Positions 6,102 to 64,000 of a DNA stretch of 64,000 nt are shown piece by piece. The notes under the pieces were generated by a model. That model did no database searches. It worked only from the letters and a program-made list of their open reading frames with translations, and was not told the origin of the DNA. A program made the translations under genes and the position numbers. Numbering within the stretch: position 1 is the first letter of the stretch; the number at the start of each line of letters is the position of its first letter. Source of the DNA: Eledone cirrhosa (taxonomy: Eukaryota); assembly GCA_964016885.1 (NCBI GenBank), contig OZ024740.1:45260001-45324000 (forward strand), written 5' to 3'.

Positions 6102-6109
<8 letters not shown>

Positions 6110-6803
6110 TTAGAATTGGAGCTCTGAAATAGCAATATATATATGAATGTATATATAATGTATTTTGCAATACACTTTATGCTTAATTAAAAGCATTTTG
6201 AAGACCGTAAGCTATTGTTTTAAAGTAGTGACAAATTCACTCACTTTGATCTCAGCAAACAGGGGAGATAAGCCGACATGCCATGTTTCGCTTTGGTTGA
6301 AGCTTATCAAGGCCAACTACCCCACCTGTCTACTGAGATCAATGATGTTATATTCTTATAGAAATCTAGTAAATAATCAGGAGCTGATTGTGCAGAGCGG
6401 TTGTTGGTCAGGCAGAACAATAGCTTACGGTCTTCAAAATGCTTTTAATTAAGCATAAAGTGTATTGCAAAATACATTATATATACATTCATATATATAT
6501 TGCTATTTCAGAGCTCCAATTCTAATTTTTAATTTCTGCCTGACCAACAACCGCTCTGCATAATCAGCTCCTGATTATTTACTAGATTTCTATAAGAATA
6601 TAACATCATTGATCTCAGTAGACAGGTGGGGTAGTTGGCCTTGATAAGCTTCAACCAAAGCGAAACATGGCATGTCGGCTTATCTCCCCTGTTTGCTGAG
6701 ATCAAAGTGAGTGAATTTGTCACTACTTTAAAACAATAGCTTACGGTCTTCAAAATGCTTTTAATTAAGCATAAAGTGTATTGCAAAATACATTATATAT
6801 ACA

Positions 6804-6808
<5 letters not shown>
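6102..6808. mobile_element. 316-bp retrozyme-like family: one monomer inverted plus ~1.2 tandem monomers
   Basis: aacaatagcttacgg occurs at 6416 and 6732 (period 316). The left arm is the reverse complement. Blocks are shared with the 310-bp array. Confidence 0.85.
6609..6705 (+). ncRNA. Type I hammerhead ribozyme, U3-A8 core variant (mirror copy 6246-6342, minus)
   Basis: ggcc TTGATAA gctt caacca aagc GAAA cat ggc atg TC ggct; distal stem I ttgatctcagtagacagg/cctgtttgctgagatcaa. Confidence 0.85.
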
Positions 6809-6846
<38 letters not shown>

Positions 6847-19702: not shown

Positions 19703-19849
<147 letters not shown>

Positions 19850-19984
19850 GAAAAGTGTAATTTACTACACAAAACGAAGGTTATAGAGAAAATTGAGGTT
19901 GGTAATGGCACATGGAATATATAAGAGACAGGATACTTTTTTGTGAAAAAACATAATTTTATAAGGTAAGGAAATAATAAAGGG

Positions 19985-20115
19985 TATATGTATGTATATA
20001 TATACATGTATATATGTATGTATATATATATATACATATATATATATATGTATATATGTATGTATATATATATACATATATATATATATGTATATATGTA
20101 TGTATATATATATAC

Positions 20116-20146
<31 letters not shown>

Positions 20147-20317
20147 CATATATATATGTATATATGTATGTATATATATATATACATATATATATATGTA
20201 TATATGTATGTATATATATATATACATATATATATATATGTATATATATATGTATATGTATATATATATACATATATATATATATGTATATATATATGTA
20301 TATGTATATATACATAC

Positions 20318-20400
<83 letters not shown>

Positions 20401-20435
20401 CATACATATATATATATATACATACATATATATAT

Positions 20436-20506
<71 letters not shown>

Positions 20507-20558
20507 CATACATATATATATATACATACACATATATATATACATACATATATATATA
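19985..20558. repeat. Compound (TA)n/(TATG/TACA)n microsatellite
   Basis: Directly visible; one of many similar tracts (e.g. 17790-18060, 19707-19848, 26457-26666, 42170-42810). Confidence 0.95.
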
Positions 20559-21597
20559 TGAATATAGACATAGAATATTCGAAAATATTCTGTATGTTTA
20601 TAATAAACATTTTGAAGACCTAATCGCTATAGAATAGAATACGTCACGTATTACAATTAGATTCTCGATAAAAGCAAGGGAAGTAATCTACGCGTTTCAT
20701 TCTTGTTAGAAATCATCAGGACTACATATCCAGTGCTTTTATCGAGAATGACACAGCTAGAGACTTATAGAATACTTAGCTGTGTACAGGAACTGGTTTG
20801 AAAGAGCGGTTGCCGGTCCGGCAGAAATTAGAAATTGGAATAAATGCTCTGAAATAGCGATATATATGTGAATATAGACATAGAATATTCGAAAATATTC
20901 TGTATGTTTATAATAAACATTTTGAAGACCTAATCGCTATAGAATAGAATACGTCACGTATTACAATTAGATTCTCGATAAAAGCAAGGGAAGTAATCTA
21001 CGCGTTTCATTCTTGTTAGAAATCATCAGGACTACATATCCAGTGCTTTTATCGAGAATGACACAGCTAGAGACTTATAGAATACTTAGCTGTGTACAGG
21101 AACTGGTTTGAAAGAGCGGTTGCCGGTCCGGCAGAAATTAGAAATTGGAATAAATGCTCTGAAATAGCGATATATATGTGAATATAGACATAGAATATTC
21201 GAAAATATTCTGTATGTTTATAATAAACATTTTGAAGACCTAATCGCTATAGAATAGAATACGTCACGTATTACAATTAGATTCTCGATAAAAGCAAGGG
21301 AAGTAATCTACGCGTTTCATTCTTGTTAGAAATCATCAGGACTACATATCCAGTGCTTTTATCGAGAATGACACAGCTAGAGACTTATAGAATACTTAGC
21401 TGTGTACAGGAACTGGTTTGAAAGAGCGGTTGCCGGTCCGGCAGAAATTAGAAATTGGAATAAATGCTCTGAAATAGCGATATATATGTGAATATAGACA
21501 TAGAATATTCGAAAATATTCTGTATGTTTATAATAAACATTTTGAAGACCTAATCGCTATAGAATAGAATACGTCACGTATTACAATTAGATTCTCG
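20559..21597 (-). repeat. Inverted arm of the 310-bp HHR array (~3.3 units, 3 hammerheads)
   Basis: aatatagaca at 20561, 20871, 21181, 21491; tcatcag at 20713, 21023, 21333. Confidence 0.95.
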
Positions 21598-21869
21598 CCA
21601 CCTTCCATCCCTCCCCTTGCTCAACCCTTACTTCCTCCTCGCGCACAGCCCACCTAGGTATTCGTTGAACCCGCCGGTGGCCCGATGTTTCGACCGAACT
21701 ATTACCGGCGATTGCCGATTGCTAAAGTTGCCACCACTTTAACCTAGTCCACTCTAGGTGGGGGTGGCATGCGTTGAACGACCAAGAGACCTGCTTGGTG
21801 GAACGACTATGTGACCACCGGTCAGTCTTCGACCTCTCATTCTCCACCAACTACAGCACGCATGAGAGG

Positions 21870-24800
21870 ATAAGTCTCTAGCTGTGTCATTCTCGATAAA
21901 AGCACTGGATATGTAGTCCTGATGATTTCTAACAAGAATGAAACGCGTAGATTACTTCCCTTGCTTTTATCGAGAATCTAATTGTAATACGTGACGTATT
22001 CTATTCTATAGTGATTAGGTCTTCAAAATGTTTATTATAAACATACAGAATATTTTCGAATATTCTATGTCTATATTCACATATATATCGCTATTTCAGA
22101 GCATTTATTCCAATTTCTAATTTCTGCCGGACCGGCAACCGCTCTTTCAAACCAGTTCCTGTACACAGCTAAGTATTCTATAAGTCTCTAGCTGTGTCAT
22201 TCTCGATAAAAGCACTGGATATGTAGTCCTGATGATTTCTAACAAGAATGAAACGCGTAGATTACTTCCCTTGCTTTTATCGAGAATCTAATTGTAATAC
22301 GTGACGTATTCTATTCTATAGCGATTAGGTCTTCAAAATGTTTATTATAAACATACAGAATATTTTCGAATATTCTATGTCTATATTCACATATATATCG
22401 CTATTTCAGAGCATTTATTCCAATTTCTAATTTCTGCCGGACCCCGGCAACCGCTCTTTCAAACCAGTTCCTGTACACAGCTAAGTATTCTATAAGTCTC
22501 TAGCTGTGTCATTCTCGATAAAAGCACTGGATATGTAGTCCTGATGATTTCTAACAAGAATGAAACGCGTAGATTACTTCCCTTGCTTTTATCGAGAATC
22601 TAATTGTAATACGTGACGTATTCTATTCTATAGCGATTAGGTCTTCAAAATGTTTATTATAAACATACAGAATATTTTCGAATATTCTATGTCTATATTC
22701 ACATATATATCGCTATTTCAGAGCATTTATTCCAATTTCTAATTTCTGCCAGACCGGCAACCGCTCTTTCAAACCAGTTCCTGTACACAGCTAAGTATTC
22801 TATAAGTCTCTAGCTGTGTCATTCTCGATAAAAGCACTGGATATGTAGTCCTGATGATTTCTAACAAGAATGAAACGCGTAGATTACTTCCCTTGCTTTT
22901 ATCGAGAATCTAATTGTAATACGTGACGTATTCTATTCTATAGCGATTAGGTCTTCAAAATGTTTATTATAAACATACAGAATATTTTCGAATATTCTAT
23001 GTCTATATTCACATATATATCGCTATTTCAGAGCATTTATTCCAATTTCTAATTTCTGCCGGACCGGCAACCGCGCTTTCAAACCAGTTCCTGTACACAG
23101 CTAAGTATTCTATAAGTCTCTAGCTGTGTCATTCTCGATAAAAGCACTGGATATGTAGTCCTGATGATTTCTAACAAGAATGAAACGCGTAGATTACTTC
23201 CCTTGCTTTTATCGAGAATCTAATTGTAATACGTGACGTATTCTATTCTATAGCGATTAGGTCTTCAAAATGTTTATTATAAACATACAGAATATTTTCG
23301 AATATTCTATGTCTATATTCACATATATATCGCTATTTCAGAGCATTTATTCCAATTTCTAATTTCTGCCGGACCGGCAACCGCTCTTTCAAACCAGTTC
23401 CTGTACACAGCTAAGTATTCTATAAGTCTCTAGCTGTGTCATTCTCGATAAAAGCACTGGATATGTAGTCCTGATGATTTCTAACAAGAATGAAACGCGT
23501 AGATTACTTCCCTTGCTTTATCGAGAATCTAATTGTAATACGTGACGTATTCTATTCTATAGCGATTAGGTCTTCAAAATGTTTATTATAAACATACAGA
23601 ATATTTTCGAATATTCTATGTCTATATTCACATATATATCGCTATTTCAGAGCATTTATTCCAATTTCTAATTTCTGCCGGACCGGCAACCGCTCTTTCA
23701 AACCAGTTCCTGTACACAGCTAAGTATTCTATAAGTCTCTAGCTGTGTCATTCTCGATAAAAGCACTGGATATGTAGTCCTGATGATTTCTAACAAGAAT
23801 GAAACGCGTAGATTACTTCCCTTGCTTTATCGAGAATCTAATTGTAATACGTGACGTATTCTATTCTATAGCGATTAGGTCTTCAAAATGTTTATTATAA
23901 ACATACAGAATATTTTCGAATATTCTATGTCTATATTCACATATATATCGCTATTTCAGAGCATTTATTCCAATTTCTAATTTCTGCCGGACCGGCAACC
24001 GCTCTTTCAAACCAGTTCCTGTACACAGCTAAGTATTCTATAAGTCTCTAGCTGTGTCATTCTCGATAAAAGCACTGGATATGTAGTCCTGATGATTTCT
24101 AACAAGAATGAAACGCGTAGATTACTTCCCTTGCTTTTATCGAGAATCTAATTGTAATACGTGACGTATTCTATTCTATAGCGATTAGGTCTTCAAAATG
24201 TTTATTATAAACATACAGAATATTTTCGAATATTCTATGTCTATATTCACATATATATCGCTATTTCAGAGCATTTATTCCAATTTCTAATTTCTGCCGG
24301 ACCGGCAACCGCTCTTTCAAACCAGTTCCTGTACACAGCTAAGTATTCTATAAGTCTCTAGCTGTGTCATTCTCGATAAAAGCACTGGATATGTAGTCCT
24401 GATGATTTCTAACAAGAATGAAACGCGTAGATTACTTCCCTTGCTTTTATCGAGAATCTAATTGTAATACGTGGCGTATTCTATTCTATAGCGATTAGGT
24501 CTTCAAAATGTTTATTATAAACATACAGAATATTTTCGAATATTCTATGTCTATATTCACATATATATCGCTATTTCAGAGCATTTATTCCAATTTCTAA
24601 TTTCTGCCGGACCGGCAACCGCTCTTTCAAACCAGTTCCTGTACACAGCTAAGTATTCTATAAGTCTCTAGCTGTGTCATTCTCGATAAAAGCACTGGAT
24701 ATGTAGTCCTGATGATTTCTAACAAGAATGAAACGCGTAGATTACTTCCCTTGCTTTTATCGAGAATCTAATTGTAATACGTGACGTATTCTATTCTATA

Positions 24801-26452
24801 GCGATTAGGTCTTCAAAATGTTTATTATAAACATACAGAATATTTTCGAATATTCTATGTCTATATTCACATATATATCGCTATTTCAGAGCATTTATTC
24901 CAATTTCTAATTTCTGCCGGACCGGCAACCGCTCTTTCAAACCAGTTCCTGTACACAGCTAAGTATTCTATAAGTCTCTAGCTGTGTCATTCTCGATAAA
25001 AGCACTGGATATGTAGTCCTGATGATTTCTAACAAGAATGAAACGCGTAGATTACTTCCCTTGCTTTTATCGAGAATCTAATTGTAATACGTGACGTATT
25101 CTATTCTATAGCGATTAGGTCTTCAAAATGTTTATTATAAACATACAGAATATTTTCGAATATTCTATGTCTATATTCACATATATATCGCTATTTCAGA
25201 GCATTTATTCCAATTTCTAATTTCTGCCGGACCGGCAACCGCTCTTTCAAACCAGTTCCTGTACACAGCTAAGTATTCTATAAGTCTCTAGCTGTGTCAT
25301 TCTCGATAAAAGCACTGGATATGTAGTCCTGATGATTTCTAACAAGAATGAAACGCGTAGATTACTTCCCTTGCTTTTATCGAGAATCTAATTGTAATAC
25401 GTGACGTATTCTATTCTATAGCGATTAGGTCTTCAAAATGTTTATTATAAACATACAGAATATTTTCGAATATTCTATGTCTATATTCACATATATATCG
25501 CTATTTCAGAGCATTTATTCCAATTTCTAATTTCTGCCGGACCGGCAACCGCTCTTTCAAACCAGTTCCTGTACACAGCTAAGTATTCTATAAGTCTCTA
25601 GCTGTGTCATTCTCGATAAAAGCACTGGATATGTAGTCCTGATGATTTCTAACAAGAATGAAACGCGTAGATTACTTCCCTTGCTTTTATCGAGAATCTA
25701 ATTGTAATACGTGGCGTATTCTATTCTATAGCGATTAGGTCTTCAAAATGTTTATTATAAACATACAGAATATTTTCGAATATTCTATGTCTATATTCAC
25801 ATATATATCGCTATTTCAGAGCATTTATTCCAATTTCTAATTTCTGCCGGACCGGCAACCGCTCTTTCAAACCAGTTCCTGTACACAGCTAAGTATTCTA
25901 TAAGTCTCTAGCTGTGTCATTCTCGATAAAAGCACTGGATATGTAGTCCTGATGATTTCTAACAAGAATGAAACGCGTAGATTACTTCCCTTGCTTTTAT
26001 CGAGAATCTAATTGTAATACGTGACGTATTCTATTCTATAGCGATTAGGTCTTCAAAATGTTTATTATAAACATACAGAATATTTTCGAATATTCTATGT
26101 CTATATTCACATATATATCGCTATTTCAGAGCATTTATTCCAATTTCTAATTTCTGCCGGACCGGCAACCGCTCTTTCAAACCAGTTCCTGTACACAGCT
26201 AAGTATTCTATAAGTCTCTAGCTGTGTCATTCTCGATAAAAGCACTGGATATGTAGTCCTGATGATTTCTAACAAGAATGAAACGCGTAGATTACTTCCC
26301 TTGCTTTTATCGAGAATCTAATTGTAATACGTGGCGTATTCTATTCTATAGCGATTAGGTCTTCAAAATGTTTATTATAAACATACAGAATATTTTCGAA
26401 TATTCTATGTCTATATTCACATATATATCGCTATTTCAGAGCATTTATTCCA

Positions 26453-26456
<4 letters not shown>
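21870..26456 (+). repeat. Tandem array of a 310-bp hammerhead-containing monomer (~14.8 units, 15 hammerheads); retrozyme-like
   Basis: taagtctcta recurs at 21871, 22181, 22493, 22803, 23113, 23423, 23732, 24041, 24351, 24661, 24971, 25281, 25591, 25901, 26211; units are nearly identical. Confidence 0.95.
21889..21977 (+). ncRNA. Type I hammerhead ribozyme (first copy in the plus-strand array)
   Basis: attctcgataaaagca..gtagtc CTGATGA t ttct aaca agaa t GAAA cgcg TA gattac..tgcttttatcgagaat. Predicted cleavage after 21949 (GUA); perfect 16-bp distal stem I. Confidence 0.9.
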
Positions 26457-26543
<87 letters not shown>

Positions 26544-26586
26544 CATATATATATATACATATATATATATACATACATATATATAT

Positions 26587-26669
<83 letters not shown>

Positions 26670-31332: not shown

Positions 31333-33401
31333 AATATATATACACATATATGTGTACATAGACACATACATACACATCAATATACACTCGTACAAAAATA
31401 TACATACATGCAAAGAGAAAAGCGTGCTAATTGTAATTATGGCAAAAAGAAGGTAAAGTAACATTGTAGTAGTGAAATGAGAAAAACTAGGATCTAGGAT
31501 CAAATGATTGCAGCAGCTGAGAAGGAGTAAGATTGTTGGTAGATGAGGTACTTACAGACAATTGTGTGGTATAGACTTGTGAAGGAAATAGTATACTTAA
31601 TGAATATATTTCTGTGGGTAGTAGGTATCCTAATTTAAAGCTATGTTATGTTGGTTCGATTCACGGAGGTTTGAATCTTATGAATTTAGTGGCTATTCTA
31701 TGTCTGCAGAAGATAGATCTTTCTAACTTATTATTAAGTAGCCTTTTAACATTTCTAAGGATATACAATAGCTCAAGATCACACAGCCCGCAATAGGACA
31801 TCCCTGTACTATAGGTTTTAGCAGCCGACAACTTCGACCAGTTGATAGTGTAGCTAGCGTTGCTGTCCTTCAATTCCCATATTTTTCTGGCGAGGGTGGT
31901 GGAACCCATAAGTGCACGGTTTTTCATTGAGTGCCTGTGCACATACCATCTTTTCTTAAAAGAACCCGCGGTGGATCCTATGTAATTCCAGGTGGAGTTA
32001 CCCGAGATGACAGTGCACATGTACACCAGGCTCGAATCGAGACATCTGTTCGCCAATGGGCACCTATCTGGGAGGTGACAGTTGCAGTTTGAGGCGCTAT
32101 TTTGTTCAGCTTTTACATTCCTATTTAGTACCCTGTTATAAGTGGGTTGTGATATATGCCCAATGGGGTTTTGCTGCTGCGCGTTTGTATGCGCTTGTGG
32201 TTGTGATATTGTGATGAGTTTGTGCTTATGTATAGGTGCAATTGATTTACTTGAGATATTTCTGTGGTTGATCTTGCGTATGTGTGATTCTATGTTAGCT
32301 GCTGTTGAGAAAGAGAGTTTTATAGTAGATCTATTGAGTATTTTGTGATATCTATGCGAGATAGGGAAGTGTTTATCTATTAGTTTAAAGAATGTAGAGG
32401 GCAGTCTAGTTTTTATAGAGGAGTTGAATATTGGGTTGAACCATAGGTATTTTCTTTGTCTGTTTCTTCTATTGTTTCTAGGGTTTACGTTATTAGTGTT
32501 TTGGCCGTTTACTCTAGGTGTTACATGTCTAACCCTATGTCTAGTCAAGCTATTCCTATTATTATGTGAGCGGTTGGAGTAGAAATTACTAGGATTGTTT
32601 ATGTTGTCCTTATTCACTATATACTGTAGTTTATCTTTATGACCGGCCCTACTTAATGCTGCATTATAATAGTCAGCATGCTCGTTAAAGATTTCTAGGT
32701 TTGAGGATAGGCGGGATATTCGGAGGGATATACTACGTGCTATGGATTTAATTATGGATTTGGGGTGATTTGAGTTGTAACTAATGTAGGCAAGATTTTC
32801 ATTATTTTTGTGGAAAGGTTCTATTAATCCAGTATTTAGATTTAGAGTTACATCTAGAAAATTTACCTTCTTATGGTTTAGTTCGTAGGTAATACTTAGG
32901 CCTAGTTTTTTGAAGAATATTCTAATATTTTTCCTTAGTCTTTCCATGCTCTGGTTGTTTAGGTTCTTAGCTATAAGTAACGTGTCGTCCCTATAAATTC
33001 CTCCTTGGAGGTTACTGAATTCCTTATGTAGGTTGTGTGCTATGAATAGCCCCACGATATCTGTAATTTGCGCAGAATCATTTGATCCCATTGTAATATC
33101 GAAGCTATTTATTCTATCCTTTCTTACCCAGTAGTTATTTTCAAATTTTACGATAGTCCTTCTAGCCGCTATTATTATTTCAATTTCATCGTGGGTAAGA
33201 TCAGAGTTATTTTGGGCAAATATAAGCGCCTTATCTAGGGTAGCTGGGGATATGGATGCATAATAGTCGTCTATATCAAATTGTATGAAGTTACACGTCT
33301 CCCTATTTTGTATTTTATTGAACCATTTAATTGCCTCGTTAGTGTAAGCTATGTGATTAAAAACTTTTTTGTATAGCAAACCATGTAAACCTTCTTTCCT
33401 G

Positions 33402-33404
<3 letters not shown>
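30556..33404 (-). mobile_element. 5'-truncated Penelope-like element with 1.1-kb 3' UTR, hammerhead and short inverted arm
   Basis: RT-EN ORF; HHR at ~30778-30891(-) with CCGAAGA core; 33344-33404 is the reverse complement of 30726-30787; (TA)n on both sides. Confidence 0.92.
31661..33343 (-). CDS. PLE reverse transcriptase plus C-terminal GIY-YIG endonuclease (N-terminally truncated, uninterrupted)
   Basis: FDIDDYYASI, MGSNDSA, YRDD, VNFLDVTL, SNHP thumb, WFNP, CNC-x5-CPL-x3-C, LVY-x-YIG, CxxC. Confidence 0.93.
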   Translation of the reverse strand, partial: TNEAIKWFNKIQNRETCNFIQFDIDDYYASISPATLDKALIFAQNNSDLTHDEIEIIIAARRTIVKFENNYWVRKDRINSFDITMGSNDSAQITDIVGLFIAHNLHKEFSNLQGGIYRDDTLLIAKNLNNQSMERLRKNIRIFFKKLGLSITYELNHKKVNFLDVTLNLNTGLIEPFHKNNENLAYISYNSNHPKSIIKSIARSISLRISRLSSNLEIFNEHADYYNAALSRAGHKDKLQYIVNKDNINNPSNFYSNRSHNNRNSLTRHRVRHVTPRVNGQNTNNVNPRNNRRNRQRKYLWFNPIFNSSIKTRLPSTFFKLIDKHFPISHRYHKILNRSTIKLSFSTAANIESHIRKINHRNISSKSIAPIHKHKLITISQPQAHTNAQQQNPIGHISQPTYNRVLNRNVKAEQNSASNCNCHLPDRCPLANRCLDSSLVYMCTVISGNSTWNYIGSTAGSFKKRWYVHRHSMKNRALMGSTTLARKIWELKDSNASYTINWSKLSAAKTYSTGMSYCGLCDLELLYILRNVKRLLNNKLERSIFCRHRIATKFIRFKPP

Positions 33405-39800: not shown

Positions 39801-41017
39801 ATTCTGAGTACATATCTCGCCGTCATCAACTTTGCCTTTCAAACTTCCAGGGTTGATAAAATAAAGTTCCTGTCAAGTACTGGATTGATTTATTCAACTT
39901 TGCCTTTCCTCCAATTTGCTGGCCTAGTGCACATTTGTGAGGTGGTGAGTTCGTTCCCGGATTGGGTGGTGCCGTGTGTCCTTGAGCAAGAAACTTATAT
40001 TTCAGTTTATTTAACTGAAAAAATGAGTTGTGATGTCACTGGTGCCAAACTCTATTGGCCTTTGTCTTCTCCTGGACATATATAGGGTATATATACTGTA
40101 CATAGTGCATATATAATGTATAAGATAGCCAAATAGTTTATTTATCGATATCGAAATGATGAAAGGCAAAGTTGACCTCGGCGGGATTTGAACACAGAGA
40201 GCAGAGAGCCGGAAGGAATACCGCTAAGCAATCTATCCGACATTCTAACAACTCTGACAATTCTCCTCCTAGTATTTAATGATATCGTCTACGAATTCAA
40301 AAAATCCAGTTTTTTAAATTTTTCCAAAGAACATGTCTGGATTAAGCTGAAATTTTCATCACGGCCCCTGCCTGAAAGTTACATTGCGGCCCTTGTTTGA
40401 AATGTTCATTGTAGCCCCTACCTGAAAATTACATTGGGACTCCTGTCTGAAAATTTCATCAGGGTTCCTGCCTGAAAATGTCATTACAGCCCTTACGTAT
40501 TATGTAAAGTATAAAAAAAAATTAAGTTGAGTCCCTAGTTGCAGCCCGCGCACCCCATCTTTAATCCGCTACTGCCGAAGTACTAAATCTTCTCCTCTCT
40601 ACGTAAACCGACCCGTATACCAAACCAAAATAAACCAGTATTTAATGTATACTATCTACGAATTCGAAAGAAGGCAGTCTATAAAACGTACCAAAGTACC
40701 ACGATACCAAAGTGAAATTAAATCTCTACAAATTAGGAAACGTTGCGAATACATAGAGCAAAGCTATCTGCTGGAAAAGCATACGCTATAGTTTTACAAG
40801 AATAGGTAGCAGCAGGTGGAAAAAGTAAATAACACCACAAAAAATAATAAATAAATAAAATAATTGTTAACTTTCTTTACTACATACAACCCAGCTAAGT
40901 CGAACAGTTAGTTGCTGCCAACGCAACGAAACTGATACACATCTAGAGTTCTTCACAACGTTATGAAATATATTCACAGAGAATATTCTCGACTCCATCC
41001 TTATTCCACTGTTGATG

Positions 41018-53854: not shown

Positions 53855-56690
53855 GGAAAAATTTGAACAGGGACAAAACAGAGAGGCAGTACAATAAATG
53901 TTTATTAATTTCACGCTCAGGAGAGTGGGGGGTAGGTGGGGGACGACGTTTCGGGCATAAGCCCTTCCTCAGGTGAGAAGTGTGTGGGAACAGAGTTCAA
54001 AAGGTGTGTAGGGGAGTGGTGGAGAGACATATAGCGAAAGGAAACGGTGCGAATGAAAAAAAACAAAGATAAAAAATAAAAATAAAGCATGATCAAAATA
54101 CAAGGAATGAGAAAATTTAAAAATAAAGGCATGATCAAAATAAACTGAAATTAAAAGGGGGGTAAACAGGTGGTGGAAGGGTGTGGGTGAGTAGGGGTGG
54201 TGGCGGGTGGAGTGGGGAGAGGGAGACGGGGTGTCCGAGCGGGGAGGGCTGAAGGTGGTGTGTGTGTGTAGGTGTGCGTGTGTGTGTGTGTGTGTGTATG
54301 TGAAAGTAAGGGTTGGGGGAAGAACGGGGTTGCATGTTCAGGAAGAGGTGTGTGTAGGGGGTGTTTTTGTGGGTCGGAGTGTCTGTGCGTGTGTGGATAG
54401 GGGGGTGGGGGAGAGGAATCAGGTGGCTGAGGGTGTAAATATGTGGTGGGAAGCACGTGTGTGTGGGGTTTAAGCGTGTTGTGGGTGTGGGTGGCGTGTG
54501 GAGAAAAAAATGTGTTTGGGGTGTGTGTGTGGGTGAGTTATATAGGTGATTACGTAAGAGGATGGTTGAAAAGTTGGTAAGTTCCAAGGATGTTTAGTGG
54601 ATAGGTTGTAAGTCAAATTCTGCGTGTGGGTAATCCATGAAGCGGTGGTCGGAAGAGGAGAGATGTGGGGTGCGCGCGCAACAGGAAGTGGTCAGCAGTG
54701 GGAGTGCTGTGGTCTGTTAGTGCTGGGAGGTGGTCAGAGGGCATAGCAGCAGTCGGTGGAATGGTAAGGGGGCGAGGATGGGTAGGTGTGAAAGTTGGAG
54801 TGAGGAGGGTGTGTGTGTGTGTGTATTAGTAGGGGTGTTAGTTTGATGAGTGAGTGTGAAGCGAGGGTGTGGGTGGAGCGGGGAGAGAAGGGTGTGTGTG
54901 GTTCTATGGAGGGAGTGTGGTGTACTGGTGTGTGTGTAGTTTGATGAAGAGGTGTTAGTGGGTGTTAGTATACGGGAGGTGGGGAGGGGTTGAATGCAGG
55001 TGTGAGTGGGGGTTAGTGGTGGTAGGGTGTGTAGAGTTGGTGGTGTACGAGGGTGTGTGGGTACGTGTGCGTGGGGTTGGGGGGTGTTAGTGATGTTAGT
55101 TGCGTGTGGGGTGGGTGGTGTAAGTGGGTGCGTGTGTTCGTGTGCTTGGGGTTAGGGGGTGTTAGTGAGGTTAGTTGCGGGGTGGTGGGATGGAGGTGTG
55201 GGGGTGAGAGGTGTGAGGGTGAGGGTTAGTGGTGGTAGTAGGGTGTGTGTTTAGTGTGAGCGCGTGTATATATGTGCCGGTGGGTGTGTGCGTGTGATAA
55301 GGAGGGGGGAGGGGTAGAAGAGGGGAGGGAAGGGATGTTAGTATGTTAGTTGGGGAAGGGTGGTCAGATGAGGGGTGGAGTGGGGGTGTTAGTATTGTTA
55401 GTGTGGGGTGGGCGGTGAAAAGGAGGGGTGTGTTAGTGGTGTTAGTGGGGGATAAGTGTGGGGGGAGGGGCGCGGTCGAACGCTAAAGGAATAAGGGTGG
55501 GGAGTTCAGGCCGGGGGGAGTGTGGGTCTGTAAGATGAAGATAGTTCGTTGTTCGACCGTAAGGCGATGGGCGGGTGTTCCGTGGCACTGGAGTAGGCCA
55601 CAGACTGTGAGATGGCGTGCGGAGTGTCCAGGGCCACCAAAGTGGCGGGCGATGGGGGAACTGCCCCCGAGACGAATATCCCGGAGGTGCTCCGTGACTC
55701 GGTCCGCCAGGCGACGTCCCGTCTGTCCGACATAAGTTGGTCTGCACTCCGTGCAGCGAAGTCCGTAGACTAGGTTGGAGGAGGTGCAGCGGAAGGCATG
55801 CCGGACCGAGAGGGAGTGGCCGTTGGGACCCTGGAAGGTGGTGGTGTTGGTGATGTGGGGACAGGTGTTGCAGCGGGGCCTAGAACAGGGAAAGGAACCG
55901 GGGGGGGGAATCGAGCGTGGGTTGGGGGGTAGGGAGCTGTGGACGAGGAGGGTGCGGAGATTGCGTGCGCGTTTGAAGGAGGGGAGTGGTGGGGTTGGGA
56001 AGACGTGGGAGGTGGAGGGGTCGGACTGGAGGTGTCGGAAGAGGCGGCGGATGGTGCGGTGGAGGGGTAAGGTGGAGGGGTGGTAGGTGATGGGGAAGGG
56101 GAGACGGTGGGTGGGTGTGCGGTGGCGTGGGGTGAGGGTGGTGGAGCGGGGGACAGCACGGGCGCGGGTGAGAGCGGTGTAGACGAGAGAGGAGGGGTAA
56201 CCTCTGCGGATGAAATGGCTGACTAGGGAAAGGGCCTGGGACTCGAAGTCAGCATCACGGCTACAGAGGCGGCGGATCCTGAGAAGTTGGGAGTAGGGAA
56301 TGGAGTGTTTAGTGTGGGTGGGTGGGAAGAGGTGAAGTCGAGGTAAGAGTGGGAGTCGGTGGGTTTGAAGAAGGCGGAGGTGACGAGGGAGTGGTGGGAG
56401 GGGTCGAAGGCGACGGAGATGTCTAAGAAGTGGACGTGGGTGGTGGAGATAGAGGTGGTGAAGTGGAGGGAGGGGTGGAAGGAGCAGAAGAAGGAGAGAA
56501 AGGAGTCGAGCTGTTCTCGGGTGAGGGTCGTGGCTCCGATACAGTCGTCAATGTAACGACCGTACAGTTCGGGCGTGGGGCCGGTGTACTGGGCAAAGAT
56601 TTGGGCCTCAACATGGCCAACAAAAAGGTTGGCATAGTTCGGGCCCATTCTTGTGCCCATGGCTACCCCCGTGACCTGATGGGCGTAAAT
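53852..56690 (-). mobile_element. Neptune-type Penelope-like element, 5'-truncated and frameshifted
   Basis: RT: GVAMGTRMGPNYANLF, YGRYIDD, HFLDI, KPTDSHSYL..SSHP. Linker CSRPRCNTC. EN: NLVYGLRCTECRPTYVGQTGRRLADRVTEH. ~1.6-kb C/A-rich 3' UTR ending at (TA)n. Confidence 0.9.
53942..53975 (-). ncRNA. Minimal hammerhead in the PLE 3' UTR
   Basis: cac CTGAGGA a gggc ttat gccc GAAA cg TC gtc; stem I is weak. Confidence 0.7.
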
Positions 56691-59629
56691 AGAAAAACGA
56701 ACGAAACACAGACAGCCCCAACTTAAAGCAACGAAACAACGTATACACATATTCATTTAATATACCAAAGTAATGAGATATTTCAAGAATTTTCGTTATT
56801 TTCGTGTGTATAATGAGCTGGAAACTACCAGATCCTTGCACTGGCTACTTGAATCGTTTCTGAAAAGTAAACGTAACTTGTTATTTAAGCATACGTAACT
56901 CAAAACTTTGAATCCTTGCCATTACATAAAGGATACACCTACATAATTCTAGTTATATTATTTTATTCAAAGAAGTTTCTAGAAAACGCATTTAGTCGAA
57001 GTTTAGTAGAAGTAAGTTCGTTAAGTAAGTGGATTCATTTCTCAGATGAAATCTAACATATTTGTACTTCATTTTGGTTTTTATGCTTTGCTTGCTTCAA
57101 TGTGATGGAAATATGTCTGAAGTGGGGGCAAATTAAGGATGGAGGTTAATTTGGATTATAAACTACGGCTCTCTATAATTTCTAAAGGGACCAAATTATT
57201 GGGGGTTTGGGTTTTTTGTTGTTGTTTTGTTTTTTGCTACCATAAATAATACACAAGGCCTCGACGAATGTTTCATCAAAGGATCCCATACAAGTTTAAT
57301 CCGGGCCTTGACTGAAGTTATTGTCATGTCAGCCAAACAACAGATTAATTTTCAACCTCACCGCATACCTTTTTACACCTTTAATTAATTGAGATTTTTG
57401 TTAGTTAAACAATTCCAATATTTTTGCTAAAACAGTAGAGTCCTAAGAAATGAGTGACGTTCTGCATGGGTAAAAAGTAATTGAAATAGTTCCAAGTGAA
57501 ATAGTAGAATGTGTAACTTAAGCCAGTAATAGACGTACTCCATGTTTCCAACTCTGTATTTATTTTAAGAAAACTATATGGGGGAGGGCATTTGGCATTT
57601 ACAAGAATTCTACCTATTTAACTATCTAATGGAATCCTTCATGAATGTATGTATGTATTTTAAGTGAATTCATGTATATATGTGTATATGTGATCCTAGC
57701 TTGGTTGATTATCGATTTATAATAATTGTAATTAGCAGGTTGTTTTCATGGTTTGAAACTGCGCTGTCCAGGCGGTTTTGAAATGTAAGTACTGTAACGT
57801 TTCTCTGTTAAACTACTTATTTTCTTTGATTTTTTCCACCTTCTTATATTATATTCGAGTAATGTTGCTCCATGGCGTTTATCGTTTAAGAGTTTGCTCC
57901 GATAAAGATTTTTTTTGCACCTGTTTTCATTGGGCAGGTGTGGATAACAAGGTCGAAATAATTGCATGGGCTTCTATGAATCTACCATTATATCGATCTA
58001 CATTCCTAAAGATTTATTAGAAATATATTTCAAATGTAATGTAAGTAATATTTTAATATTCTACATGGTTATGTTGTTATGCTAGATATCAACAATGTTG
58101 TATCCATAACAATATCTGTATAAGATCTTTATGTTTTTGGTATTTTAACGCCTAATTGACATCAAGAGGTTAGGTACATTTTTGTATATATCGATATAAC
58201 TGTATTGTATATATATGTGTGTGCGTGTGTTGTCATCATCATCATCATATATATTTATATATTATGTGTGTATGTGAGTGTGCATGCTTCTTTTATATTA
58301 ACCCCCAACTCTCTTCTCCACCTAAAAAGCAGTCCCGCAACTCCTGCATGTGTGAAAAATTACACGTAAGATTACCAATAACTTATAATTGTGTAATTAG
58401 TGTAATTTCCTATTCTAATTGAATTGGAACCAATTTTCTGGAAGATAGAAGCTACATCATTTATAGTCTTTTCATTCGCTAATTATAAAAATTAATTAAC
58501 TCCAAACATTCGTCTTAAGAAAATATTCTTATTGTCACATATATTTTACAAGAGTTCACACGATATCTCACAAGCAGTGGCTGCTCCATTCACCACTTCA
58601 TTTATCTAAGCTAGCTTTATATGTTTATCTATACTGTCTAGCCATCTATATTCTTATAAACGGTATCAATTTTCTGCGAGAGAGATTTCTTACAAAATCT
58701 GTCATGTGATATTTCACATCACAGATTATAGATAGTCTATAAATACATCATAAACTTCAAAGACTTAAGATATTAGTAACATCAGCTGTAGATAATAAAG
58801 ATTTTTTTTTTACATTGGCACAAAGCCATACGTTGTAGGTGAAGAGTACTATCGCTTGAATCAACCCTTTAATATAACTGGTACTTATTCTGTAGACACA
58901 GGTTGAATGAAAGGGGAAATCAACCCTGGGAAGATTTACACTCAAGATGTCAAGTGGTGTAACGAAATACCACATTATACTTTCGGTTTCTGCTACTCGT
59001 TGCCCAATGAATGTGTGTAGCCTAATAGTTAATATATTGTACTTATAATCAATCTAGCCTAGAAGTTAGGATAATGTGTACATGCTTGCAGGGTTCCTGG
59101 GCATGGCAGTGCATACTTAAGCAAAATATTTCACTTTATACTATTCTAATCCACTTAGCTGAAGGTAATTAGTACCACAAACAGCTGTGGGTTACCCCCA
59201 TCACTGACTGATGTCTTGTCTGCAAGCAACTCTTGAATTTTTCAGTCTCTTAACATTAAAGAAACTAAGATGCAAGTTCCGGTTTGATGAGCCCCTGGAC
59301 TTTGAACAGACTTTAAACTTAACTAATTAACCAGCTAATTAGCCAGTAGTAGCACTGAATAAACTCATAAACACATCAGTTCGGGAAGCAAGTGTCCTGA
59401 AACGCTATAGCTGCCTTAGGCATCTTCATATTCAATAGAATATGTTCTGCGTTAAGTCACACCGAGTTTAACTTTACCTCTCATCCTTCCGGGGTCGATA
59501 AATAAAGTACTGGCCTAGGATGGATTGGTGAAGTTGTTAGGGCATCGAGTAGGACGTTTTGCGGTATTTTTTCCGTCTCTTTGTGTTCTGAGTTCAAATC
59601 CCAATGCAGACTGTTTGTGAGCTGGATCT

Positions 59630-62600
59630 AATCTGTCCCCCAGTTTAACACAAATATCTAGCTCTTGTGTGGTGGTTTTAACCTGTCACCCAGTTTAACA
59701 CAAATATCTCGCTCTTGTGTGGTGGTTTTAATCTGTAGCAGGAGTTGCCTCCCTTGTTGTGACACTCACAACCCCAATAGATTAACGGTCTCTAGACAGG
59801 AAGTAGAACCCTTTCTGTAACTTCCGGTCAGGAGCCTATAAAACTAACAACGTTAAGCTCTCTATCTCTCATTCGCCTTTTCGGTCAGGCGCCTCCTGGC
59901 TTTCGCCAGGAGACTTCAATCAGGCGTGTAACCCTGGCAACCAAGCGGTAACTAATAACTTTGTTTCATTCTTTCATCTACTCATTGACATGTCAACTAT
60001 AATTTTCTATATATCCACAAATTGTTTATTAAATATTATACACACAAATCACGTCTCTTTGTTATATTCATACATACCAGTATTTTGCTATAATTGGTGA
60101 CCCCGACGTGATACGAACACGTAGCCGTTCATTGTTATAAGTGGTGACCCCGAAAAAAAGAAAAAAATAGCAGAATCTGGTGTTGTGTGAGTAACATTAC
60201 GAATACACAGCAAAATTTTATTGACAAACTATGAAAATACGCAGTCAAAGAAACGAACACGCACATGTGAAAACAGACACTTTTTCCCTCACGCATCAAC
60301 TAACTGTAGCATTTCACTGTATATATATATATGTTTCTCGTTTCTTACAATGAACACTTTAAAAACAAACAAACAAAAAAGAAATTTGATTTTTTTTTTA
60401 AAACATTACAACAGGAACATTTATTTTCGATGAACCCCAACCATTGCCTTTTTTCATCGTTTTCTTCATCGTTCAAGTTTTTTTCAAAGTTCACACCAAA
60501 AATTTTAAAAAAACAAATTGAACTCGCCATATTTGTTATGCTAAGTGAAGCCTTTCTTTCTTTTTCATCATTGTCACTTTCACACACACATTTTTTCAAA
60601 ATGGCTGCCAACGACCTGTTGCACTATCATTTTCGCGCCATTTTCTCGCGCATTAGAAATATTACTTTTTCAACTTAACCTTGTTTTGGCACGTGTAGGA
60701 TTCTCGACTCACAGAGATAGCCACACGCCAGGGATAACGTTTCTCGCCAAGGATTCTCCAGCCTTAAGCTATATTCTCCTATTTGCCGGTTTAAAAATTT
60801 ACTACGTAAATTTGCCGTTGAAAACTGCGCATTTATTCAGAATGCTTATTTCTTTGGTCGCTGGCCTCTTGACCCTTCCAGGTCAACGCATTCTCAACAT
60901 CGACCATAAACTTCGGCTGTTATTTCTAGCACTTCGCGCAACTCATTTTTTCTGAAAAAAATGTTTTTACTGTGAATTTAAACACCGAATACGCTAACTC
61001 CGCGAGACAACATCAACAGCAACACAGCTTCATCAACAACCAAAACCAGCAGAACAAGCCAGATATTTTATTTTTGCAGCACTCTTCCTGTGAGAAAATC
61101 CATTCGGAGGTTGGAAATTTCACGATATACCACAGAACAGAAACCACCTGCATTCATTCTCTGGAACACACTTTCTTTCCTGCTGTCATGTGATTGCACA
61201 CCTGTGAACTATATTTTGTACATTTGAACTTTGAGCTCTTCTCTTACTTTATTACATTGTATCTTTGGGTGATGGATAGATAGATGTCCAGTCGTTCTCT
61301 GGCCAAGAGCAGTTGGCTACCTTGATATCTATCATTGATTTTTGCAAACATTATTTTTTTTTTTCGTAATTTTCATGCCCGTTACAACATTCTCTCCAAC
61401 TTGCTACATACATATTTCATTCGATTTTTATATTTTTAAAATCTGGCGGGAAGTAATGTAGCAGGAGTTGCCTCCCTTGTTGTGATACTCACAACCTCAA
61501 TAGATTAACGCTCTTTAGACAGGAAGAAGAACCCTTTCTGTAACTTCCGGTCAGAACCCTATAAAACTAACAACTTTAAGTTATCGCTCTCTCATTCAAC
61601 TTTCCGGCGCCTGGCCTCTCATCGGTCAGGCGCCTCCTGGCTTTCGCCAGGAGTCTGGGAGCAGGCGTATGTAACCCTGGCAACCAAGCGGTAACTAATA
61701 ACTTTGTTTCATTCTCTCATCTACTCATTGACATGTCAACTATACTGTTCTATATATCCACATATTGTTTATTAAATATTATACACACAAACCACGTCTC
61801 CTTGTTACATTCATACACACTAGTATTTTGCTATAAATCTGTCACCCAGTTTAACACAAATATCTCGCTCTTGTGTGGTGGTTTTAATCTGTCACCCAGT
61901 TTAACACAAATATCTCGCTCTTGTGTGGTGGTTTTAACCTGTCACCCAGTTTAACAGAAATATCTCGCTCTTGTGTGGTGGTTTTAACCTGTCACCCAGT
62001 TTAACACAAATATCTCGCTCTTGTGTGGTGGTTTTAACCTGTCACCCAGTTTAACACAAATATCTCGCTCTTGTGTGGTGGTTTTAATCTGTCACACCAG
62101 TTTAACAGAAATATCTCGCTCTTGTGTGGTGGTTTTAACCTGTCACCCAGTTTAACACAAATATCTCGCTCTTGTGTGGTGGTTTTAACCTGTCACCCAG
62201 TTTAACAGAAATATCTCGCTCTTGTGTGGTGGTTTTAACCTGTCACCCAGTTTAACAGAAATATCTCGCTCTTGTGTGGAGGTTTTAACCTGTCACCCAG
62301 TTTAACACAAATATCTCGCTCTTGTGTGGTGGTTTTAATCTGTCACCCAGTTTAACAGAAATATCTCGCTCTTGTGTGGTGGTTTTAACCTGTCACCCAG
62401 TTTAACACAAATATCTCGCTCTTGTGTGGTGGTTTTAACCTGTCACCCAGTTTAACACAAATATCTCGCTCTTGTGTGGTGGTTTTAATCTGTCACCCAG
62501 TTTAACACAAATATCTCGCTCTTGTGTGGTGGTTTTAACCTGTCACCCAGTTTAACACAAATATCTCGCTCTTGTGTGGTGGTTTTAACCTGTCACCCAG

Positions 62601-64000
62601 TTTAACACAAATATCTCGCTCTTGTGTGGTGGTTTTAACCTGTCACCCAGTTTAACACAAATATCTCGCTCTTGTGTGGTGGTTTTAATCTGTCACCCAG
62701 TTTAACACAAATATCTCGCTCTTGTGTGGTGGTTTTAACCTGTCACCCAGTTTAACACAAATATCTCGCTCTTGTGTGGTGGTTTTAACCTGTCACCCAG
62801 TTTAACACAAATATCTCGCTCTTGTGTGGTGGTTTTAACCTGTCACCCAGTTTAACACAAATATCTCGCTCTTGTGTGGTGGTTTTAATCTGTCACACCA
62901 GTTTAACAGAAATATCTCGCTCTTGTGTGGTGGTTTTAACCTGTCACCCAGTTTAACACAAATATCTCGCTCTTGTGTGGTGGTTTTAACCTGTCACCCA
63001 GTTTAACAGAAATATCTCGCTCTTGTGTGGTGGTTTTAACCTGTCACCCAGTTTAACAGAAATATCTCGCTCTTGTGTGGAGGTTTTAACCTGTCACCCA
63101 GTTTAACACAAATATCTCGCTCTTGTGTGGTGGTTTTAATCTGTCACCCAGTTTAACAGAAATATCTCGCTCTTGTGTGGTGGTTTTAACCTGTCACCCA
63201 GTTTAACACAAATATCTCGCTCTTGTGTGGTGGTTTTAACCTGTCACCCAGTTTAACACAAATATCTCGCTCTTGTGTGGTGGTTTTAATCTGTCACCCA
63301 GTTTAACACAAATATCTCGCTCTTGTGTGGTGGTTTTAACCTGTCACCCAGTTTAACACAAATATCTCGCTCTTGTGTGGTGGTTTTAACCTGTCACCCA
63401 GTTTAACACAAATATCTCGCTCTTGTGTGGTGGTTTTAATCTGTCACCCAGTTTAACACAAATATCTCGCTCTTGTGTGGTGGTTTTAACCTGTCACCCA
63501 GTTTAACACAAATATCTCGCTCTTGTGTGGTGGTTTTAATCTGTCACCCAGTTTAACACAAATATCTCGCTCTTGTGTGGTGGTTTTAACCTGTCACCCA
63601 GTTTAACACAAATATCTCGCTCTTGTGTGGTGGTTTTAACCTGTCACCCAGTTTAACACAAATATCTCGCTCTTGTGTGGTGGTTTTAACCTGTCACCCA
63701 GTTTAACACAAATATCTCGCTCTTGTGTGGTGGTTTTAATCTGTCACCCAGTTTAACACATATATCTCGCTCTTGTGTGGTGGTTTTAACCTGTCACCCA
63801 GTTTAACACAAATGTCTCGCTCTTGTGTGGTGGTTTTAATCTGTCACCCAGTTTAACAGAAATATCTCGCTCTTGTGTGGTGGTTTTAACCTGTCACCCA
63901 GTTTAACAGAAATATCTCGCTCTTGTGTGGTGGTTTTAATCTGTCACCCAGTTTAACACAAATATCTCGCTCTTGTGTGGTGGTTTTAACCTGTCACCCA
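59630..64000. repeat. 50-bp tandem satellite (2 units before the LTR element, ~43 after; runs off the window)
   Basis: Unit ctgtcacccagtttaacacaaatatctcgctcttgtgtggtggttttaa(c/t). Confidence 0.97.
59734..61835 (+). mobile_element. Non-autonomous LTR retrotransposon, copy 2, inserted in the 50-bp satellite
   Basis: LTRs at 59734-60092 and 61457-61835 (tgtagca..tgctata), TSD AATC, PBS tggtgaccccgacgtgat at 60095-60112, PPT ggcgggaag; internal region colinear with copy 1. Confidence 0.92.

Follow-up and report, generated by a model that had tools for sequence, protein, structure and literature searches.

Two-arm insertions of a young, protein-less 310-bp hammerhead family in Eledone cirrhosa bear the end signature of Penelope-like elements

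How does a tandem array that encodes no protein come to lie, as two opposed arms, inside a (TA)n tract? The question is raised by a 64,000-nt stretch of the Eledone cirrhosa genome (assembly GCA_964016885.1, contig OZ024740.1, 45,260,001–45,324,000; hereafter the window), in which a 310-bp unit carrying a predicted type I hammerhead ribozyme is repeated many times. The original prediction, made from the letters of the window, had read this array as a retrozyme, that is, as cDNA written from a circular RNA by the reverse transcriptase (RT) of a Penelope-like element (PLE). On our best reading, it is a member of a very young, protein-less and newly described family of retrozymes of the type without long terminal repeats (non-LTR), and it probably marks an insertion whose two arms were likely made as two cDNAs by a PLE RT rolling round one RNA circle.

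A pattern scan of the window located the hammerhead core (CTGATGA..GAAACGCGTA) 15 times on the plus strand (21919–26289) and 3 times on the minus strand (21339–20689) at a spacing of 309–312 bp, while Tandem Repeats Finder (TRF) counted 14.8 copies at 21870–26456 and 3.4 at 20550–21597, bearing out the predicted numbers of plus and minus copies and their 310-bp period. The unit is 310 bp long with ~34% GC; of the 16 complete units 8 are identical to the commonest one and the other 8 carry 1–2 base differences, so that they are ~99.8% alike. Also as predicted, both outer ends pass into (TA)n, at exact junctions at 20559 and 26456, and the element has no coding open reading frame (ORF), the longest beginning with ATG in 20700–22600 being 30 aa. 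An ORF with RT and GIY-YIG nuclease, the hallmark of autonomous PLEs, was not found in the array element; such ORFs occur elsewhere in the genome. The predicted head-to-head layout holds for the divergent orientation, but the arms do not abut, since a 272-bp piece of a long interspersed element (LINE) occupies 21598–21869 between them. Coordinates are collected in Table 1, and unit phases are numbered from the first base 3' of the GUA cut.

The type I core is present in all 18 units of the window array and its stems form in the predicted fold. For the first plus-arm copy the core spans 21919–21949, stem I joins GTAGTC to GATTAC (21913–21918/21950–21955; pair probabilities 0.86–1.00), and a perfect 16-bp helix (21889–21904/21962–21977) is present in the sequence and formed in the predicted fold. 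Cleavage is predicted after 21949, where the core scan and the original prediction place the same GUA site. A circular monomer has a predicted minimum free energy (MFE) of -67.8 kcal/mol (z -4.8 against 150 dinucleotide shuffles; 60% paired), with the catalytic fold 1.5 kcal above it, and stem II carries a U.U at position 10.1–11.1. Stem III consists of one A-U pair closed by a CGCG loop (the palindromic ACGCGU), so a single unit lacks a complete stable hammerhead. The claim that each unit holds a complete type I hammerhead therefore stands for the core, stem I and the 16-bp helix and fails for a self-sufficient monomer, whose stem III is too short. The motif is likely of the palindromic dimer type; as described in passages of PMC4209133 and PMC7229834, hammerheads with a short palindromic stem III work as dimers, cutting in multimers and sparing monomer circles.

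Genome-wide, a 16-nt core motif gave 19,077 exact matches (9652 + 9425; control 0), and a 21-nt motif common to the 310-bp family and its older relatives gave 21,050 (control 0). The family amounts to ~5.9 Mb, or 0.2% of the 3.0-Gb genome, and at a mean of 8.7 units per element to an estimated ~2,200 loci. These are dispersed elements with fixed outer ends and few units, unlike a block satellite; the genome survey suggested along with the original prediction thus returned dispersed (TA)n-flanked multimers at ~2,200 loci and not one block, in line with its view that the array is no ordinary satellite.

The mode of insertion was read from 95 elements: internal sequence served to pick 20 of them, the short end alone another 20, and the long end the remaining 55. 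Two arms were found in 81 of them, always divergent; one further element leaves its stretch and one adjoins a gap, leaving inversion in 81 of 93 informative elements. In 80 of the 81 two-arm elements one outer end lies at phase 127–139 and the other at phase 163–172 (the remaining element is unclear), and no long-long or short-short pair occurred among the 81. The same pairing was seen in 16 of 17 two-arm elements picked by internal sequence (1 unclear) and in 15 of 15 picked by the short end. Although 75 of the 95 elements had been picked with TA-junction patterns, the two-arm loci picked by internal sequence were also flanked by (TA)n. Long and short ends mostly differ by 35–40 nt, which is the PLE "tail" signature set out in passages of PMC8557442; in the window the 37-nt tail would span two reverse-transcription start sites. 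Inverted layout and tail together support the PLE origin first proposed. The expected variation in phase, in contrast, is confined to the inner junction, where ends fall at any phase, the outer phases being fixed, and the single cDNA first envisaged gives way to what are likely two cDNAs per insertion. Because both ends run into (TA)n, a target-site duplication is unreadable.

Among 80 inner junctions, 42 showed overlaps of 1–8 nt, 9 longer overlaps, 10 were blunt and 19 carried inserts; one of the 81 two-arm elements has a complex junction. All inserts are ≤25 nt, the longer ones being unit-derived, save for the LINE piece of the window, which is the sole insert above that length. This piece comes from the 5' part of a non-LTR retrotransposon whose RT lies downstream in other copies. 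It has 190 candidate relatives, and of the 40 scored 39 lie on contig C25 at 96–98%, the remaining one being the window itself; it is internal and ~2–3% diverged from the copies listed, and its exact donor was not found in the assembly. By its motifs the source LINE would be CRE/RLE-like. An origin of the spacer in rRNA or another known RNA family was rejected, as neither the window nor 10 spacer-related loci gave an Rfam match at gathering score. Dozens of copies of the LINE region at 96–98% cluster over ~5 Mb (L027, L053; G000:C25:19-24 Mb), one of them adjoining a C2H2 zinc-finger array.

The arms also carry information on their template. At 54 two-arm loci non-reference alleles are shared by both arms, and 2 loci are mosaic, on a background of 39 nested haplotypes in which two random loci match with a probability of 0.13. 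Of 160 arms, 151 extend across the cut site and 141 are longer than one unit; the median arm is ~1.0–1.3 kb long, the longest 8,459 nt, and one array has more than 30 units. Six inner ends were scored at phase 1–3, of which four run well past the cut in unit-matching inserts, which leaves no more than 2 of the 160 inner ends at ≤3 nt from the cut, against ~3 expected by chance. Shared variants in multi-unit arms mean that new variants go through a bottleneck of one unit before they recur throughout both arms, and such a bottleneck with both arms alike is what rolling round a monomer circle gives. The predicted multi-round copying of a putative circle is indirectly supported by the single-haplotype arms and by selection on the ribozyme.

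That selection is visible in the variants that loci have inherited. None of 35 locus-fixed substitutions in the 95 elements falls in the 13 core positions, and 4 break a helix of the catalytic fold against 12.05 expected (P 0.0004), whereas 114 changes confined to single units behave neutrally (55 against 57.0 expected). An earlier version of the helix test, with the plain MFE fold and 55 elements, gave 6 against 8.8 (P 0.11), which is non-significant because two core positions were counted as paired. Inherited variants thus appear to avoid the catalytic core and to keep the helices, as under purifying selection on the modelled ribozyme. Their commonest changes are at N7, in loop II and 287U>A, the last of these closing the basal U.U of stem II. 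A>G accounts for 13 of the 35 inherited but 6 of the 114 single-unit changes, and for 10 of 24 with the two most diverged elements as outgroup; each of the 8 derived changes that keep a helix is A>G (P 0.0007, assuming strand-symmetric rates), and 276A>G, in a UAG context, recurs on several backgrounds. Editing by ADAR prior to reverse transcription would fit the excess; so would selection that acts more strongly against changes of C-G to U.G, and the A>G sites showed no neighbour bias beyond background. Passages of PMC7229834 name editing as one possible source of heterogeneity in retrozyme RNA.

These observations can be arranged into a putative cycle. A locus would be transcribed as a multimer in which adjacent hammerheads associate via the palindromic ACGCGU and cleave after GUA, and the released monomer would be ligated into a circle; since a lone monomer circle cannot form stem III, it would stay intact. 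A PLE protein, probably a dimer, would then nick a (TA)n tract on both strands, with one of the 3' ends priming at phase 127–139, which is UA-rich in the RNA, and the other at phase 163–172, as the ends suggest. Each RT would roll for a variable length, and the inner cDNA ends would join by the 0–8 nt overlaps or short templated patches seen at the junctions, a LINE fragment having been captured at this step in the window. The outcome, as observed, is an array of two divergent arms, one ending long and the other short, which as a rule share a single haplotype. Variants would be fixed by passage through a single monomer and those damaging core or helices lost; many are A>G and possibly ADAR edits written into DNA.

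Several observations pull the other way. The sample is narrow, with 91 of the 95 elements on C1:0-142 Mb, and 12 of the 95 are single-armed. The helix test rests on a predicted fold, and the Infernal check proposed with the original prediction drew a blank, the Rfam scan of the window giving no match at gathering score; its best match, to Hammerhead_HH9, reached 19.2 bits, far short of the cut-off of 52 (E 0.082). In parts of PMC11167929, hammerhead cleavage of an anole PLE is described as dispensable for insertion in vitro. At L246 both arms switch haplotype after two units, at phases 284–294; at L264 the same variant sits in the same pass of both arms; at L120-1 two linked variants recur with a period of 7; a linked pair appears in 6 of 31 passes at L146, and 45A>G in 3 of 19 passes of the window array; and at L131 the arms differ at phase 276 over four passes, with a switch in one arm only. 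Such mosaic or periodic loci imply multimer templates, template switches, nested insertion or later conversion in a minority of cases. A shared haplotype could alternatively arise if one locus were expressed per germ cell. Finally, the 30 ~3-kb and 20 10-kb GIY-YIG loci searched, out of 10,596 candidates, yielded no autonomous PLE clearly homologous to the unit in sequence.

Some of these loci invite other accounts. The register-matched variants of L246 and L264 and the period-7 variants of L120-1 are what PLE machinery would leave if its usual template were an uncut linear or large circular multimer from an older array, and the anole PLE, in the relevant parts of PMC11167929, does use unprocessed RNA in vitro. 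We nevertheless think this unlikely, given that private variants are fixed over up to 30 passes and both arms, that parental junctions do not appear in daughters (complex junction in 1 of 81), that arrays could only shrink per generation, and that inherited variants spare the catalytic core. A fold-back copy, in which one arm is reverse-transcribed and the second is copied from the first DNA by self-priming (akin to the model in passages of PMC3846280, and compatible with a circular template), accounts jointly for shared haplotypes and for L246 and L264, and some junctions have palindromic overlaps of 11–48 nt. It is doubtful rather than far-fetched: either arm can be far longer (4590 for the long-end arm against 1048 in the window, 6320 for the short-end arm against 3526 at L232-3), arm lengths correlate weakly (rho 0.25), the L131 arms differ at 276 over four passes, and in vitro measurements on a PLE, in the parts of PMC11167929 concerned, gave two distinct RT start sites.

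We give little credence to PLE insertion of 1–2 units per arm followed by unequal crossing-over, the kind of amplification proposed in bioRxiv 10.64898/2026.07.22.740005. A few variants are common to adjacent units (19del in the window, L263, L129, C4) and long arrays are sometimes mosaic, as local amplification would have it, yet most loci are multi-unit in both arms (141 of 160 arms >310 nt), single-unit substitutions are absent from 12 of 36 loci with ≥10 passes, and the number of passes does not rise with divergence (rho -0.20, P 0.08, 79 loci). That the LINE found between the arms mobilised the array, or that the array is an ordinary satellite, is highly improbable despite the LINE piece inside the window insertion, which is the only insert >25 nt in 80 junctions, internal and ~2–3% diverged from the copies listed; tail, inversion and ~2,200 dispersed fixed-end loci are traits of PLEs and not of LINEs or satellites.

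If a PLE enzyme wrote the two arms from one circle, as we favour, the genome holds possible sources for it. Among the GIY-YIG candidates, several autonomous RT/GIY-YIG families with a CxxC motif before the nuclease (e.g. L181, L184) show the two-arm, tailed layout in (TA)n; by the descriptions in passages of PMC8557442 they would be of Neptune or Nematis type. L181 (G000:C1:83.81 Mb), whose open frame runs to 1,096 codons, has a 35-nt tail, 1,073 candidate relatives (the 40 scored at 95–100%) and a long-end pattern that occurs 1,896 times; its nearest named relatives are bivalve proteins at 60–64%. It shares the long end TTCCAAT|ATAT with the unit, with TGTCT at a nearly equal upstream distance. 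The L181-type end region resembles the unit at P 0.0035 (3' copy) and 0.04 (5' copy) for a region chosen after inspection, while 4 other PLE-type ends gave P >0.6 and families B and C were non-significant. No canonical hammerhead was found in the pseudo-long terminal repeat (pLTR) of 30 copies of the L181 family. As the resemblance is modest and was picked by eye, this Neptune-type element is a candidate partner only. The window itself contains PLE-like RT/endonuclease frames of two families, at 31661–33403 (-) and 55483–56756 (-), the first without a Pfam match.

The 310-bp family has relatives. Families B and C are ~76–82% identical to it over phases 59–212 and share its architecture with different hammerhead and helix sequences, and the B loci viewed have similar ends; window 6102–6816 holds an older relative from family B, likewise in two arms, whose hammerhead has decayed. 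At least 4 further type I hammerhead families occur in the window, several as small inverted insertions, 15 hammerhead core groups were found across all genome stretches examined, and PLE ends bearing hammerheads abound in the genome. L189:8068-9553 holds a second tandem hammerhead family, built of ~490-bp units. Within the 310-bp unit, the reverse complement of phases ~226–270 (window 22165–22210 region) resembles another family's hammerhead with a broken core (score 29 against 15.6, P 0.003, letter shuffles); an inversion junction at a PLE hammerhead may have given rise to the unit. A 50-bp minisatellite at window 61839–64000 (also 40347–40479 and 59615–59736) has 43 copies at 97% identity and continues past the window end.

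Contigs from 4 of 6 sequencing runs were examined for the unit. In run X2 they are deep and variant-rich with loose TA ends, like genomic DNA. Runs X1, X3 and X6 carry the labels of three other organisms, and in each of them the exact unit is present as one wrapping 340-nt contig at depth 10–15, for which contamination, diet or transfer are all conceivable sources; we rejected these contigs as evidence of circles because a trace-level tandem repeat would assemble likewise.

Table 1. Features of the array insertion and other hammerheads in the window
Feature	Position in window	Strand	Basis
Left (TA)n-rich target tract	19707..20558	.	TRF, sequence
Minus arm, ~3.35 units; outer "short" end phase 130, inner end phase 22	20559..21597	-	
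Minus-arm cores	21339-21309, 21029-20999, 20719-20689	-	
Captured non-LTR retrotransposon fragment, 272 bp	21598..21869	+	sequence similarity
Plus arm, 14.8 units; inner start phase 231, outer "long" end phase 167	21870..26456	+	
First plus-arm type I hammerhead; repeats every 310 bp	21889..21977	+	
37-nt "tail", phases 131-167; at this outer end, not at the other	26420..26456	+	end comparison; PMC8557442, PMC11167929
Right (TA)n target tract	26457..26666	.	TRF, sequence
Further hammerheads	3385(-)/3438(+), 18443(+), 29037(+), 30270(-)/30354(+), 34236(-)/34477(+)		

The papers cited here leave open by what route animal retrozymes move and why PLE insertions are inverted and tailed at one end, and this family is young and abundant enough for the mechanism to be read from the genome, in its end pairing, shared haplotypes, read-through of the cut site and purifying selection. 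The reading of one circle copied twice predicts start sites near phases 130 and 165, dimer-dependent cleavage and a 310-nt circle, and it comes with a candidate enzyme that has a long open frame. If the A>G excess is due to ADAR, RNA editing would be linked to heritable change. A bolder version, which we regard as possible and hold tentatively, is a viroid-like RNA quasi-species in the germ line, whose circles, edited by ADAR within their helices, are filtered for ribozyme function and written back by a dimeric PLE enzyme firing both start sites on one circle. Each of the ~2,200 insertions would then record one single edited RNA circle, host RNA editing would be a source of heritable mutation, and the origin of PLE tails and inversions would be settled.

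Non-LTR retrozymes have been described in coral, mussel and axolotl (HHR_Amex1/2), and their mobilisation by PLEs from a circle has been proposed (Cervera and de la Pena 2020, PMC7229834, in the passages concerned). Like them, the 310-bp family has tandem units in the 170–400 nt range, a type I hammerhead, low GC, no ORF, a self-paired predicted circle and dispersed loci; its one-pair stem III with palindromic tetraloop recalls HHR_Amex1, its U.U at the base of stem II HHR_Amex2. Inverted insertions in two arms, fixed ends, a tail, haplotypes particular to a locus and (TA)n targeting do not figure in the same passages, which report demonstrated expression and cleavage, whereas our family is known from genome sequence. 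Vertebrate retrozymes, according to parts of the preprint of Li, Clavereau and Pollet (bioRxiv 10.64898/2026.07.22.740005), derive from and hijack PLEs, and in several groups their mean unit is similar (~310–340 bp). As far as those parts go, that link is based on co-occurrence and pLTR homology in Xenopus, with no mollusc included, no tail mentioned and local amplification favoured, while ours is based on an integration signature, pLTR homology being weak.

Endonuclease-bearing (EN+) PLEs such as Neptune, Poseidon and Naiad are described, in passages of PMC8557442, PMC11167929 and PMC3846280, with an inverted 5'-truncated copy, a 30–40 nt tail at one end and an AT or (TA)n target; PMC11167929, in the parts concerned, maps the tail to two RT start sites and has the protein, a predicted dimer, cut and extend both strands of AT-rich DNA. 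The 310-bp family resembles these elements in the inverted copy, the one-end tail, the (TA)n target and a hammerhead upstream of the RT start sites, and departs from their descriptions in having no ORF, in both arms being multi-round copies of 310 nt, and in inversion being the rule (81/93) with long and short ends paired in 80/81. Chlamydomonas MRC1 and other non-autonomous Chlamys elements, as presented in parts of PMC8557442, are likewise non-autonomous PLEs with multicopy head-to-tail insertions, but the Chlamys clade is described there without canonical hammerheads and with 3' similarity to an autonomous partner, unlike our family. Our literature search, from which subscription papers lay outside, returned no paper on a cephalopod retrozyme or on a two-arm long-plus-short insertion signature, and the portion seen of an Octopus vulgaris repeat annotation paper does not mention "ribozyme". 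The retrozyme class and its link to PLEs are already published; within the literature searched, the insertion signature is the new part.

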